A stretch of 64,000 bases of DNA from Escherichia coli O127:H6 str. E2348/69 (GCF_000026545.1 NC_011601.1); one strand, 5' to 3'; numbered from the stretch's first letter, positions 35,703 to 56,029 are shown. Numbers and translations are program-made. The notes: generated by a model from the letters alone, not told the origin.

Positions 35703-35729
35703 GAAAAATAAAAGGCCGCTATTGCGGCC
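35703..35729 (-). terminator. Intrinsic terminator ending the internal-virion-protein operon
   Basis: GGCCGC-TATT-GCGGCC hairpin followed on the minus strand by TTTTATTTTT. Confidence 0.6.
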
Positions 35730-35731
35730 TA

Positions 35732-35743
35732 GTGACATGTCAC
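35732..35743. repeat. Palindrome GTGACATGTCAC (copy 1)
   Basis: Perfect 12-bp palindrome directly 5' of the terminator at 35703-35729. Confidence 0.5.
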
Positions 35744-35750
35744 ACTCATG

Positions 35751-35891
35751 CTATGACAAACCTATGTACCCTGCTATACCAGATAATATTAAAACAACTG
35801 CGACGGCAAATTCCCCATCTTCAATGATACATTTACGGTTCATTACGACAAGCGCGACAAGTGCCAACACAACAAGAATTATAACAATCAT
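35751..35891 (-). CDS. Small hydrophobic protein (46 aa)
   Basis: ATG at 35891 with AAGGA ribosome-binding site; product MIVIILVVLALVALVVMNRKC...; below the ORF-track cutoff. Confidence 0.45.
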   Translation of the reverse strand: MIVIILVVLALVALVVMNRKCIIEDGEFAVAVVLILSGIAGYIGLS

Positions 35892-35901
35892 TTTCGCATC
35901 C

Positions 35902-38376
35902 TTATTGCGGAGTAACATCCTGAGGTCGCCACCAGTATGTCTGGTTAAATTCTTTCTTCGAACGCTGCTCCATCTTACGCAGATAGCCAGGGGAAAAATA
36001 TTCTTGCATCTGATTAAAGATCATATGATCAAGCGCAGCCTTCAGGTACCAGATGTTGGCACCAGGTGTCAGACCTTTTCCAAGCTTAACCAGATCACCA
36101 CCAGTTTGCTCGCTCTTACCTTCTACCGCATTCAGTGGAATACCCTGGCCTATTTTGATAACGTCATCGACCAGGCCAGCCACCGGTCCGAGCATTGAAG
36201 CCAGTGCGCCGCTTCCGTACCGGGTGTGATCAGACAACAGGAAATCACCGTACAGGCCAAGACCGCCGCCTTTCAGCAGAGCACCAAGCCAGAATTTAGC
36301 AGCATCTTCACCGACCATATCCCGCGGATTACGGCCTGATGCCATGTCATTTAGTTGCTGAGAAAGCGCGCCAAGTATTGTCGTGCTGGCTATAAACGTC
36401 GCGATATAAGCAGCCCGCCCACCAGCAGAAGGCATACCCATAGCCCGCGACCAGTGGCGCATCACGACAGAGATCGGGAATGACTTGAACAAGAATACGC
36501 TGCGGGTTAATTCACCTTTCCATGTTCCGCGCTGAATACCTGAACCGGTAACCATCTGCTCACGCGCGCCCGGAGTTATCACAGCCATGTCAACTTCTTC
36601 GGTAACCGCTCCGAGTAACTTACGCATTGCTTCAAACTTCACGCGCTCCGGTGATCCGAGGTGCTCTACAGCAGCATCGGGTATACGCATGATGCTTTCC
36701 GGAGTCAGCATCGTATCGTTGCCTTTCCCCCAGTCCTCCTGTTGCGCCAGTTTCCACACGCTCCAGTCGGTATCGGTGATTCCTTTGCTTTTCAGTATGC
36801 GGAAATCGTCATTAGACAGGCTTTTCAGATCCGGCGTTCTGGTGACAACATCACCAAGACTGCCCATCATAGTGACACCGTAGGCACGCTTGTGCGCGTC
36901 TGACCACGCAGTTAATCCACTGGCGCGCATAACCGCAGTTGCAGCCCACCGGGAGACAGACGGTCCCATATTATCCATCGCCCAGCGGTTAACGCTGCCG
37001 AGCAGTGATTCCATAGCCAAGCCAGCACGACGAGCCCTGGCCAATTCAGTGCGATTCGTTGGGTCCATAGCTTCAAGCTGGTTACGGAATAGCTGATTCA
37101 TCGGAAGGTTGGTAACCTTCGCTGACAGGTACATGGTTCCAAGATCAGAGAACGATGACAACAGAGCAGAACCGAGACGACTGGCAACCATCCAGTTGCG
37201 GATGTTATCCGACCAGCGCGCAATATGCGGGTTTGCAACAGGCTGAGTTTTACCAGAAATAAAGTTATACAGGTTCTCAGTATTGTTTGCCTGGCGCTCT
37301 ATACTACCGGTATCCTGCGGGTTAGCCGTAGCTGTCTCTGATTTCGTCTGATCCAGCAGTGAGCGGAACACATGATCCGGGTTTGGTCCGTAGGTTTCCA
37401 CCAGCGCAATGTCTTTACTGATACCTTCCAGGTGCCCTACCATGATTTCCCAGAGTGACCGGTCGCCGTACATCTGCTGGTACTGAAGGTATGAATCAGC
37501 GTCTTTAAAGTGGATTTGGCGTGAGGCGTTGCCACGGTTTGCCCGCGCACCGGAAATACGCATACCGGTATCAGTGAGTTTATTCAGGCCACCTGTGGCA
37601 ATCGTGTTATAGGCTTCACCGAGAAAAGCTGATAACTCAGTATCATTCATCAACTGGCCGTCGGCGCGTGTGTAATATTTGCGATCGAGTTTACCAATCA
37701 CATCACTTACCCACTTATCCTTCGATACCGCCCCAACCTTTTCCATAGAGTGGTGCTGTGGTATACCCCAGTTTTCCAGATATCCGATATCACCACCAGC
37801 ATCATTAAACCTGCGGCGCAGTAGCTCAGTAACTTCGCCCCAGGCTTTAGCCCCTTTCATGGCTTTCGCATTGCCAGTTTTCTGGCCGCGCATCTCAAAC
37901 ACCAGATCACGGACTCCGGCTTCATCTTCAAACAGACCGAAGAAACGAGGATCAACAGCCTCGAATACCTCCTGTAACTGGCTTAATGCGTAATCACGGG
38001 TCGCTTTCGTGCGTGACTCAACAGACAGAAAGTTTGATTTACCGTCAGCGCTGAAGGCGATCGTGCGGTTGAGTGCGCCTAGCTTTCCGTCAGCACCCTG
38101 ATAACTGTTAATGAAGTTGTCCAGGCGCTGACGCGCTGCGATGGTAAGCGCGACACGGCGTTTTTTCAGTGCCACCTCTCGCTGCAACTCTTCAGCCGCC
38201 AGTTGCCCGGCTCGGCGCAGGCGTTCAGCGTCGTTAAGTTGACGCCATGACATCGGATCGTCACGGGCAATAGATCGCATATTGCGGTAAATGCGGTCTT
38301 CGATATTCTGTATTTCTCGGGCTGTAAGAGTGCGCTGTGCTGCCTGTTGCACGGCCTGAATACATTCCTGTCTCAT
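35902..38376 (-). CDS. Internal virion / ejection protein (T7 gp16-like position)
   Basis: 824-aa ORF in the block of large proteins between tail and tailspike genes. Confidence 0.5.
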   Translation of the reverse strand: MRQECIQAVQQAAQRTLTAREIQNIEDRIYRNMRSIARDDPMSWRQLNDAERLRRAGQLAAEELQREVALKKRRVALTIAARQRLDNFINSYQGADGKLGALNRTIAFSADGKSNFLSVESRTKATRDYALSQLQEVFEAVDPRFFGLFEDEAGVRDLVFEMRGQKTGNAKAMKGAKAWGEVTELLRRRFNDAGGDIGYLENWGIPQHHSMEKVGAVSKDKWVSDVIGKLDRKYYTRADGQLMNDTELSAFLGEAYNTIATGGLNKLTDTGMRISGARANRGNASRQIHFKDADSYLQYQQMYGDRSLWEIMVGHLEGISKDIALVETYGPNPDHVFRSLLDQTKSETATANPQDTGSIERQANNTENLYNFISGKTQPVANPHIARWSDNIRNWMVASRLGSALLSSFSDLGTMYLSAKVTNLPMNQLFRNQLEAMDPTNRTELARARRAGLAMESLLGSVNRWAMDNMGPSVSRWAATAVMRASGLTAWSDAHKRAYGVTMMGSLGDVVTRTPDLKSLSNDDFRILKSKGITDTDWSVWKLAQQEDWGKGNDTMLTPESIMRIPDAAVEHLGSPERVKFEAMRKLLGAVTEEVDMAVITPGAREQMVTGSGIQRGTWKGELTRSVFLFKSFPISVVMRHWSRAMGMPSAGGRAAYIATFIASTTILGALSQQLNDMASGRNPRDMVGEDAAKFWLGALLKGGGLGLYGDFLLSDHTRYGSGALASMLGPVAGLVDDVIKIGQGIPLNAVEGKSEQTGGDLVKLGKGLTPGANIWYLKAALDHMIFNQMQEYFSPGYLRKMEQRSKKEFNQTYWWRPQDVTPQ

Positions 38377-38380
38377 TCAA

Positions 38381-55332: not shown

Positions 55333-55922
55333 TCTTCACCACCAGCCCGCTCTTTCACGCGACGGCGGGCCTTAGCCATGCGGTCGGCAATGGTGACGGT
55401 GCCGGAAACTTCCAGGCGCTCTTTGAACGCATTGACGTCGACGTGCTTACCAATCAGCTCGAGGTTCTTCACCTTGTCAGGCCATTTGATTTTCTTGAGG
55501 ATGGTCTCGATTGATGTCTCATCCATGTTCATGATGGTAGAGGACAGGTCGAAACCACTCAGTGTGGTGCGCCATATCTTCGGCCACTCGCGGATAGGCT
55601 TCAGGGTGCCATCATCGTTCAGGATGTCGATCACATCCATCTGGTCGATTTCCACCAGGCGAAGTAGCACGTAATCAGCACTGACGCGCAAACGCTTGTT
55701 GCGTTCCTCCATCAGCTCGGCGATCCGTTTCTGGATGCGCTCATCACGCATCATGACACTGGCTTTAACCGCTGCCGTATTAGGCGAGAACCCTGCGTTA
55801 ATCGCCGCCTGCGTCTGATTCTCAGGGCATTTGGTATATTCCTGCGCATAAGCCTCCTGCATCGCTGTTAGGGGCTTGTACTGAGTTGATTTTCGTTTTG
55901 GTGCTTTTGGTTCTGCGGGCAT
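55329..55922 (-). CDS. Terminase small subunit
   Basis: ORF 55329..55997; start placed at MPAEPKAPKRK (GGTGG ribosome-binding site). Confidence 0.65.
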   Translation of the reverse strand: MPAEPKAPKRKSTQYKPLTAMQEAYAQEYTKCPENQTQAAINAGFSPNTAAVKASVMMRDERIQKRIAELMEERNKRLRVSADYVLLRLVEIDQMDVIDILNDDGTLKPIREWPKIWRTTLSGFDLSSTIMNMDETSIETILKKIKWPDKVKNLELIGKHVDVNAFKERLEVSGTVTIADRMAKARRRVKERAGGEE

Positions 55923-55941
55923 TGTTACCACCGAAGTAATA

Positions 55942-55958
55942 ATTACCGTTTTGGTAAT
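55942..55958. promoter_or_regulatory. Operator-type palindrome ATTACC-N5-GGTAAT (site b)
   Basis: ATTACCGTTTTGGTAAT about 20 bp upstream of the terminase small-subunit start. Confidence 0.5.
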
Positions 55959-55963
55959 AGTAA

Positions 55964-55994
55964 CACGCAAAACAAAGCCGCCATAGTCGGCGGC
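55964..55994 (-). terminator. Intrinsic terminator at the end of the early operon
   Basis: GCCGCC-ATAGTC-GGCGGC hairpin followed on the minus strand by TTTGTTTTG. Confidence 0.55.
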
Positions 55995-56017
55995 CATTGC
56001 AATTTATTGTCGATATC

Positions 56018-56029
56018 GTGACATGTCAC
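56018..56029. repeat. Palindrome GTGACATGTCAC (copy 3)
   Basis: Perfect 12-bp palindrome overlapping the stop of the 112-aa gene, 5' of the terminator at 55964-55994. Confidence 0.5.

Follow-up and report, generated by a model that had tools for sequence, protein, structure and literature searches.

The window analysed here, a 64,000-nt stretch of Escherichia coli O127:H6 str. E2348/69 (GCF_000026545.1, NC_011601.1), carries an epsilon15-like (Uetakevirus) prophage in which a 12-bp palindrome, GTGACAYGTCAC, occurs in three exact copies at the ends of transcription units. It is reasonably established that this palindrome, of the general form GTGAC-NN-GTCAC, is a functional site in duplex DNA and not an RNA hairpin. 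In phages of several families it accompanies the gene for a small protein of the gp49/gp46 family, and a dimer of this protein is likely to bind it, as judged from sequence comparison. The further proposal that the palindrome is an operator of gp49 with a role in transcription is somewhat favoured. Its half-sites are identical to those of matS, the target of the host protein MatP.

The palindrome in the window and in related phages

A pattern scan of the window locates the exact matches at 35732-35743 (S1, GTGACATGTCAC), 53812-53823 (S2, GTGACACGTCAC) and 56018-56029 (S3, GTGACATGTCAC). S1 follows the last small open reading frame (ORF) of the virion block, which is gp18-like (35751-35918, - strand). 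S2 stands between a cargo gene on the + strand, the ORF ending at 53807, and the end of terL, and S3 encloses the TGA stop codon of the gp49-like gene (56026-56364, - strand, 112 aa). With at most one mismatch allowed, seven strand-matches are observed against 0.74 expected, a number that none of 100 dinucleotide-preserving shuffles reaches. The non-random occurrence asserted in a preliminary description of this DNA is thereby borne out. That description gave the outer two copies correctly and the middle one a base too wide on each side (53811-53824). It also placed each copy 3-25 nt upstream of a hairpin-plus-U-run terminator closing a transcription unit; this placement holds for all three, and the distances were corrected to 1, 4 and 22 nt.

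A fourth GTGAC-N2-GTCAC copy, GTGACGGGTCAC on the + strand at 34795-34806, lies in the N-terminal coding region of the tailspike gene, within a conserved domain, over the codons R-D-P-S. It is found in only 8 unique contexts among 80 loci and not in epsilon15 gp20, and is probably incidental.

Conservation was surveyed in epsilon15, phiV10 and Tyrion, the DNA of which is 77-92% identical to the window, and in about 160 IMG/VR loci, 80 around gp49 homologs and 80 around the end of gp17 (L-numbers denote individual loci or contigs). The records of epsilon15, phiV10 and Tyrion do not annotate the motif, which is nevertheless present at all three equivalent junctions in each of them; the third copy of phiV10 has one mismatch and is not followed by a terminator. 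In nearly all of the 80 gp49 loci GTGAC-NN-GTCAC lies on the gp49 stop codon, and a second copy follows terL. This equivalent of S2 has a hairpin next to it in epsilon15, phiV10 and Tyrion, as it has in most IMG/VR loci, and the cargo genes on its far side are highly variable. The equivalent of S1 is found in 77/80 loci around the gp17 end, while both of its flanks vary: the small upstream ORF exists in several unrelated versions, and the hairpin may be swapped for another terminator or for a ribosome-binding site and a gene (L103).

Downstream of S3, the relatives have one of two modules: a terminator and a repressor (Rep)-type operator, as in the window, or a sigma-70-like promoter with a LexA box and a umuD-like gene. 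In the second form, present in about half of the relatives (L004-L083, such as L046 at 6336-6800, which corresponds to 55960-56029 in the window), a perfect LexA box, TACTGT-N8-ACAGTA, overlaps the promoter TTGACT...TATACT, which starts 5-8 nt after the motif and drives a 109-aa umuD-like ORF before terS. The copy lies about 200 nt beyond the gp49 stop in six loci (L068, L071, L075, L077, L079, L080) and 21 nt beyond it in L221-223. Since the motif persists with changed flanks and away from the stop codon, it is an element in its own right. A coding constraint at the gp49 stop is ruled out, as sites are found 3 nt (phage ZF40), 21 nt and about 200 nt past it, and also in unrelated places.

Linkage of the site to the gp49 gene

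In a BLASTP comparison of all epsilon15 ORFs with the phages ZF40, N15, K308 and lambda, a Yersinia P2-like phage and an Aeromonas phage, gp49 alone is shared with at least two of these genomes. A homolog is present in 5/5 motif-bearing genomes of this comparison and absent from lambda. The myovirus ZF40 has a homolog, gp22, with 66% identity to gp49 of the window and contains three exact copies of the motif, one of them 3 nt after the gp22 stop. N15, in which gene 46 is the homolog (36% identity), has three GTGAC-N2-GTCAC copies, one on the stop codon of gene 46. Three copies are also present in Vibrio phage K308 (39% identity), one of which lies 31 nt before the start of terS, and two copies 33 bp apart in the Yersinia phage (40% identity). 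The Aeromonas phage (34% identity) contains GTGACCGGACAC four times, and three of these copies lie about 25 nt before start codons, including that of the homolog itself. In the contigs L170 and L171 (30-37% identity) the site is on the stop codon of the homolog, and contig L172 (35% identity) has CGTGAC-N-GTCACG three times, with a spacer of a single base.

By chance about 0.04 strict sites are expected per genome (4^-10), and shuffles yield 0.1-0.25 per genome for the relaxed pattern GTG[AT]C-NN-G[AT]CAC. In N15-like loci the site at the stop codon is found in 49/49 cases, the total being 110 sites in 0.91 Mb as compared with 0.87 expected, and the copies inside repA and in the antirepressor leader are kept wherever the locus extends that far. 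Only the N2 spacing is enriched in gp49-bearing genomes, with one lineage (L172) using N1; among the 12 gp49-bearing sequences tabulated there is a single N3 site, in K308. Lambda has neither a gp49 gene nor an N2 site, and PY54, a telomere phage related to N15, has no gp49 gene and no GTGAC-N0-4-GTCAC at all. The hosts of the motif-bearing phages in the sample are Enterobacterales, Vibrio and Aeromonas, and 258 plasmid records have a gp49 homolog. From these distributions gene and site appear, on reasonably firm grounds, to travel together as a module, one copy of the site being located on the stop codon or shortly behind it and about two others scattered over the genome.

Some details of individual genomes may be added. 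In N15 (L166) copies are found at 33237 and 28550, and throughout the family (L176-L224) the copy inside repA is an invariant 13-bp block amid variable sequence. The leader copy of the N15-like antirepressor operon lies about 24 nt upstream of a predicted -35 element (TTGACG). Two Vibrio phage-plasmid-like genomes (L168, 35830-35973; L172, 15950-16111) share a G-rich block (GGGGGTGGG(C/A)AAATC...) that resembles a cos/HNH-terminase region; the motif comes immediately behind it, 31-56 nt upstream of terS. Lambda (L169) has two GTGAC-N1-GTCAC palindromes, at 9747 in gene G and at 19010 in lom, where about 0.05 would be expected by chance.

A DNA site rather than an RNA hairpin

Across 188 unique contexts the ten bases of the half-sites, GTGAC and GTCAC, are invariant, while the central dinucleotide varies (AT in 117, TG in 21, AG in 14, CC in 9, and others, including GC). 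A flanking pyrimidine is present in 96% of these contexts, and the consensus is Y-GTGAC-NN-GTCAC-R. No covariation was found among the aligned motif contexts. An RNA hairpin tolerates compensatory changes and requires a loop of at least 3 nt. Invariant inverted half-sites around a free centre, without covariation, therefore argue for a duplex-DNA site that is read by a symmetric dimer. The best RNA stem of the motif has 4 bp and -1.2 kcal/mol (z about 0), no better than that of shuffled sequences, and the motif has no match in Rfam.

The preliminary description had seen in the palindrome a GUGA/UCAC stem, and in its position a control element of the nut or put kind or a site for a module-specific factor. 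The stem can indeed be drawn, but it is marginal. The nut- or put-like element is contradicted by the invariant half-sites, the variable centre, the lack of covariation and of an Rfam match, and the negligible stem. The module-specific factor agrees with a site that seems to be tied to a gp49-family protein. The likeness to CRP half-sites, also raised there, is superseded, as the half-sites match matS and only the spacer is shorter, by one base; for a CRP/FNR-type site the spacing is wrong, with 4 nt and not 6 between GTGA and TCAC.

Several other identities were considered and rejected. As part of a sigma-70 promoter, a -35-like GTGACA with TAAATT can be drawn at S3 only; distances to -35-like hexamers vary, and there is no consistent geometry. 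The operator of the epsilon15 repressor (Rep), ATTACC-N5-GGTAAT, is a different palindrome. A methylase or restriction target, an integron attC, a repetitive extragenic palindromic (REP) element and a pac site were also weighed, and the dyad, the copy number and the gene linkage do not fit any of them.

The gp49-like protein

The candidate binder encoded in the window (WP_001140120.1, phrog_536) has no match in Pfam or NCBIfam. An alignment of 59 diverse members of the family reveals a conserved N-terminal RKxxQRxR helix, a strand-helix-helix segment, the motif PYxxxEYIxxLIRxD and a Cys motif, C-x2-C-x8-C-x7-C. The predicted model comprises one N-terminal helix, a core resembling the ribbon-helix-helix (RHH) fold, a Cys-rich loop and a short C-terminal helix. 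The strand-helix-helix arrangement, forming a dimer that reads the major groove, is that of the RHH superfamily, and it is reasonably established that gp49 has this fold. The protein consists of a basic N-terminal helix, an RHH part and a Cys-rich C-terminal half that resembles TraR and YbiI. For this half, a PDB-wide profile search ranks YbiI and TraR at the top, with E values of 0.03-0.05. HHalign of the gp49 family gives 70.7% for TraR (TraR residues 6-64 of 73) and 56.3% for YbiI, as compared with 0.3% for an unrelated zinc finger control, Ogr. TraR binds in the secondary channel of RNA polymerase. A similar polymerase contact by gp49, suggested by this likeness, is a lead and not a result.

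Homology of gp49 to MatP was looked for by several means. HHalign gives a probability of 0.2%, the Pfam families MatP and MatP_C match 0/59 members and NCBIfam none, and the gp49 family hidden Markov model scores 4.6 bits on MatP, a value equalled by 49/2000 shuffles. Foldseek finds no significant match for gp49 in the PDB, and in AFDB50 it returns uncharacterised members of the family only. When the predicted model of gp49 is compared with MatP, only the RHH with its flanking helices superposes. Because the sequence tests fail, gp49 is considered here as an RHH protein with a matS-like target and not as a member of the MatP family.

Transcription-unit ends and adjacency to terminators

All three copies in the window are followed, in the direction of transcription, by a terminator consisting of a hairpin and a U-run, with folding energies of about -14 to -17 kcal/mol. 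S1 ends 1 nt before the hairpin (35730-35713) of a - strand terminator at 35703-35730, which continues with TTTTATTTTT and separates the virion block from a convergent Ant-like gene (35423-35701, + strand). On the + strand, S2 lies 4 nt before the hairpin (53828-53847) of a terminator at 53828-53852 that continues with TTTTT and closes the cargo gene. S3 is 22 nt before the hairpin (55995-55976) of the - strand terminator at 55966-55995, continued by TTGTTTTG; its counterpart is annotated in the epsilon15 record at 39646-39672. An 8-bp palindrome, CGATATCG at 56009-56020, abuts S3 between motif and terminator and is partly kept in relatives (GATAGCG and GATATCG variants).

The layout of the prophage, derived from the ORFs and operators of the window and the annotation of epsilon15, runs along the - strand. 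It starts with the gp49-like gene (56364 to 56026), which is followed by S3, its terminator and a Rep-type operator at 55942-55958 (ATTACCGTTTTGGTAAT). This operator precedes terS and marks the start of the next late unit; its equivalent is annotated as a repressor site at 12-27 in epsilon15. Then come terS, terL, a hairpin, S2, the + strand cargo gene and a Rep-type operator at 52594-52610. The virion block, from the gp3-like and portal genes to the gp17/18-like ones, leads to S1, its terminator, the convergent Ant-like gene, a Rep-type operator at 35348-35364 and finally the tailspike gene. Since Rep-type operators are located just upstream of each late block (35348, 52594, 55942), motif and terminator stand at unit ends, and the next late promoter under repressor control follows each copy of the motif at a distance of 60-1,200 bp. 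Seven more Rep-type operators (ATTACC-N5-GGTAAT with 0-1 mismatch) are found in the immunity and early region, at 58370-58448, 60739-60772 and 61480-61634, which mirrors the annotation of epsilon15.

The three copies also border hypervariable cargo (moron) slots, which in the window extend over 52283-53851 and 35284-35751. Among relatives (L004-L163) the slot behind terL is occupied by dozens of unrelated reverse-strand genes, and the one separating virion block and tailspike gene by Ant, Bro-N or other genes. In the window the slot after terL contains a 164-aa ORF with weak similarity to HNH proteins (phrog_374, E 2.8e-5). The RefSeq record NZ_LT827011.1 has a pseudogenic tRNA-Gly at window positions 53057-53169 (+ strand); ARAGORN finds no tRNA in the whole window.

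Adjacency to terminators was scored as a hairpin and U-run within 30 nt of every unique site context. In Uetakevirus a terminator is found 3' of the motif in 114 of 188 contexts, in the opposite polarity only in 2, in both polarities in 8 and not at all in 64. The 56 N15-like contexts and the 20 contexts from other lineages are all without one, so that adjacency outside Uetakevirus amounts to 0/76. In most Uetakevirus contexts the motif lies 0-6 or 21-25 nt 5' of the hairpin, and occasionally it is 3' of a terminator; it is kept where the terminator is replaced by the LexA-box promoter, by another terminator or by a ribosome-binding site and a gene. The polarity of these roughly 114 concordant contexts carries little statistical weight, since they go back to about three ancestral junctions. 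The consistent coupling to terminators that the preliminary description emphasized is thus real in the window and in the genus, but it is not obligatory. Likewise, related prophages (epsilon15, phiV10, Tyrion and the IMG/VR loci) do keep the motif at equivalent junctions, and the terminator linkage is not universal among them. Adjacency to terminators is a placement habit of Uetakevirus at operon ends, where there is intergenic space and where terminators are located, and not a property of the system of motif and protein. An influence on termination at these junctions at the level of DNA or protein is possible, because gp49 has a TraR-like half.

Likeness to known systems

The closest parallel to the site is matS (GTGACRNYGTCAC), a 13-bp palindrome, GTGAC-RNY-GTCAC, with a 3-bp spacer (PMC6907758, Table 2; PMC3603311, Methods). 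The inverted half-sites are identical, and removal of the central base turns matS into the phage site; the spacer of the phage copies measures 2 bp (1 bp in L172), and their palindrome is therefore not an N3 matS. Like matS, the phage sites are single and dispersed, each presumably bound by one dimer, but they are found on phage DNA, at about 1 per 13 kb. Prophages were reported to be without true matS, which they avoid (Bobay et al., PMC3603311); the 13-bp pattern used in that search would miss the 12-bp phage form. MatP is tripartite, with a four-helix bundle, an RHH and a C-terminal coiled coil (PMC12756933). It shares with gp49 a basic helix followed by the RHH and a long second helix, whereas gp49 has neither the four-helix bundle nor the coiled coil and contains a Cys-rich, putative zinc module instead.

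RHH repressors such as Arc and Mnt of P22, CopG, antitoxins of the ParD/MazE type and the RHH of PutA are small dimers that read inverted repeats in the major groove, as is proposed for gp49. The copy just upstream of the homolog's own gene in the Aeromonas phage is what would be expected for autoregulation. Classical operators of these repressors, however, are tandem or extended and located at their own promoter, while each site associated with gp49 is a 12-bp palindrome standing by itself, as a rule at the 3' end of a gene, at an operon end or inside a gene. The conserved N-terminal RKxxQRxR helix and the putative zinc module are additions of gp49. With the TraR/DksA family (TraR of the F plasmid, YbiI, Orf73 of lambda) gp49 shares the pattern of a long helix, CxxCGxx(I/L)P, G...C and a further helix, and its residues 47-110, approximately, align with nearly the whole of TraR (6-64). 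The homolog genes of ZF40 and N15 are located in the early region, upstream of or next to a Q-like gene, a position comparable to that of the TraR-like genes of lambdoid phages. In contrast to TraR, which has a free acidic N-terminal tip and no DNA site, gp49 has the RHH in place of the tip; the second CxxC is lacking, the spacing of the Cys residues is different and Pfam zf-dskA_traR is not matched.

Two termination control systems invite comparison. With lambda Q and its QBE, and with RfaH and ops, systems in which polymerase is modified at a DNA site before it meets a terminator, the likeness is one of working only. The Uetakevirus regulator is the last early gene and is followed by its putative own DNA site, a terminator and terS, an order that recalls Q-QBE-tR', and the sites precede terminators in the direction of late transcription. 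There is no homology, many relatives have no terminator, and the sites of other phages lie inside genes or 22-31 nt before starts. Lambda nut (boxA/boxB) and HK022 put similarly provide short dyad symmetry in transcribed DNA near terminators. They function as folded RNA with specific loops, the structure of which is kept by covariation, in contrast to the phage motif with its negligible stem, invariant sequence, variable centre, lack of an Rfam match and persistence without terminators.

Proposed role and alternative explanations

In this prophage each of the three copies marks where an operon ends: one comes behind gp49, the last early-right gene, another behind the cargo gene beside terL, and the third behind the last virion gene. 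The mechanism proposed is that gp49, expressed as part of the early operon, would bind at these junctions and alter the behaviour of RNA polymerase there. Occupancy could reinforce insulation or termination; alternatively, it could gate the passage of polymerase, so that early-operon transcription extends into terS-terL and that of the virion block towards the tailspike gene. Which of these directions the effect on termination takes is a coin toss. The TraR-like half might act by touching the polymerase, and the element would act as DNA with a protein, not through RNA structure.

A number of observations weigh against this proposal. The link between gp49 and the motif is one of co-occurrence, that is, guilt by association. 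Single isolated 12-bp sites with no fixed distance to a promoter are an unusual geometry for RHH repressors; some sites are inside coding regions (N15 repA, ZF40 gp08 and gp12), and in several lineages a start codon follows the site after 22-31 nt, a distance too short for a classical activator. The similarity to TraR is moderate, with zf-dskA_traR (PF01258) unmatched in 59/59 members and the second CxxC missing. Homology between gp49 and MatP is not demonstrable by sequence, and the Foldseek search of the PDB gave no significant match. Finally, a terminator is missing behind the gp49-end site of phiV10 and of about half of the relatives, so a terminator gate is not essential, and there appears to be a separate Rep-controlled promoter for each late block.

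The main rival explanation, which we consider unlikely, retains the pair of gp49 and site and gives it an architectural, MatP-like task: to bridge or condense DNA, to unload or exclude SMC complexes (structural maintenance of chromosomes) such as MukBEF or those of the Wadjet type, or to disturb host MatP and Ter during lytic growth or plasmid-prophage maintenance. Single, dispersed sites, about 3 per 40 kb and some of them in genes, do resemble matS more than operators. Many carriers are phage-plasmids, including the N15-like ones and the plasmid records mentioned above, and the hosts mostly belong to MatP-bearing clades. Partition loci, moreover, typically have the gene of a DNA-binding protein and, behind it, the cis site of that protein. 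However, gp49 is without the four-helix bundle and coiled coil of MatP (PMC12756933) and without detectable sequence homology to it, the two spacers are unequal by 1 bp, a segregation function is not obviously needed by integrated Uetakeviruses, and the TraR-like C-terminal half points to RNA polymerase. Very improbable is the view that a host factor binds the sites, either MatP itself, with the sites as matS decoys or for hitch-hiking, or another enterobacterial regulator, gp49 being a mere linked passenger. The resemblance to matS (PMC6907758) and the restriction of the motif in the sample to phages of Enterobacterales, Vibrio and Aeromonas speak for it. But the motif tracks the gp49 gene and not the host, as lambda from E. 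coli and PY54 from Yersinia have none, and gp49 genomes have no true N3 matS except the one in K308; prophages are reported to avoid matS (PMC3603311). A spacer shorter by 1 bp rotates the half-sites by about 36 degrees and should hurt binding of MatP, and the N1 lineage and a lineage with an asymmetric variant fit co-evolution with a phage protein.

Two further explanations dispense with a dedicated DNA-binding protein. That the palindrome is a passive recombination linker at module borders, providing homology for the swapping of cargo, has a very small probability. All three Uetakevirus copies do border hypervariable regions (cargo after terL; Ant, Bro or others after gp18; and, after gp49, the terminator and operator as opposed to the LexA promoter and umuD-like gene). 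Yet 12 bp are too short for efficient homologous exchange, perfect dyad symmetry with a variable centre is not expected of a linker, and the same half-sites recur in unrelated phages and inside genes, always alongside gp49. Least credible is an RNA-level termination or antitermination element, nut-, put- or RAT-like, just 5' of the terminator, which is largely refuted. Its merits are the consistent polarity in the window and in most Uetakevirus contexts and the stem that can be drawn. A 5-bp stem would leave a loop of 2 nt, the bases of this loop vary, and the motif persists where there is no terminator. The distances between motif and terminator differ among the three window copies, and there is thus no common overlap with the terminator stem.

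A bolder form of the idea, which we hold to be speculative and rather unlikely, is that the gp49 family represents minimal MatP-like site readers fused to a TraR-like polymerase module, and that the sites lacking one base of matS are an orthogonal copy of the host Ter code. If this were true, a secondary-channel factor delivered to RNA polymerase at fixed points on the DNA, shortly before terminators or genes, would amount to a novel form of site-specific termination or antitermination. Alternatively, such sites would be used for manipulating or evading host MatP, MukBEF or Wadjet-type SMC on phage and phage-plasmid DNA.

Implications for late-gene control and for the gp49 family

The motif string is absent from the full-text papers searched, and the literature search found no report of MatP-like phage proteins or matS-like phage sites. 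The paper on regulation in Uetakevirus (PMC9782041) covers the repressor, antirepressor and integrase only, and no late-gene regulator is annotated in the phage records examined. An RHH protein with a palindromic operator is a known kind of system; what is new is the linkage to a site at the 3' end of a gene, the spread across phage families, the matS-like half-sites and the fusion of RHH and TraR-like parts.

In practical terms, the motif flags three insertion hot spots for cargo (moron) genes, and site and predicted binder could serve as a compact operator-binder pair. For a family annotated only as hypothetical or as a transcriptional regulator, a probable function and a precise DNA target can now be proposed. 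This family extends over epsilon15-like phages, N15-like phages, including widespread Klebsiella phage-plasmids, and P2-like, ZF40-like, Vibrio and Aeromonas phages. The pair also provides a testable handle on late-gene control, that is, on how the early, packaging, virion and tailspike units of epsilon15-like phages are kept apart or joined. Furthermore, a site one base short of the host matS raises the question whether phages keep an orthogonal Ter code.

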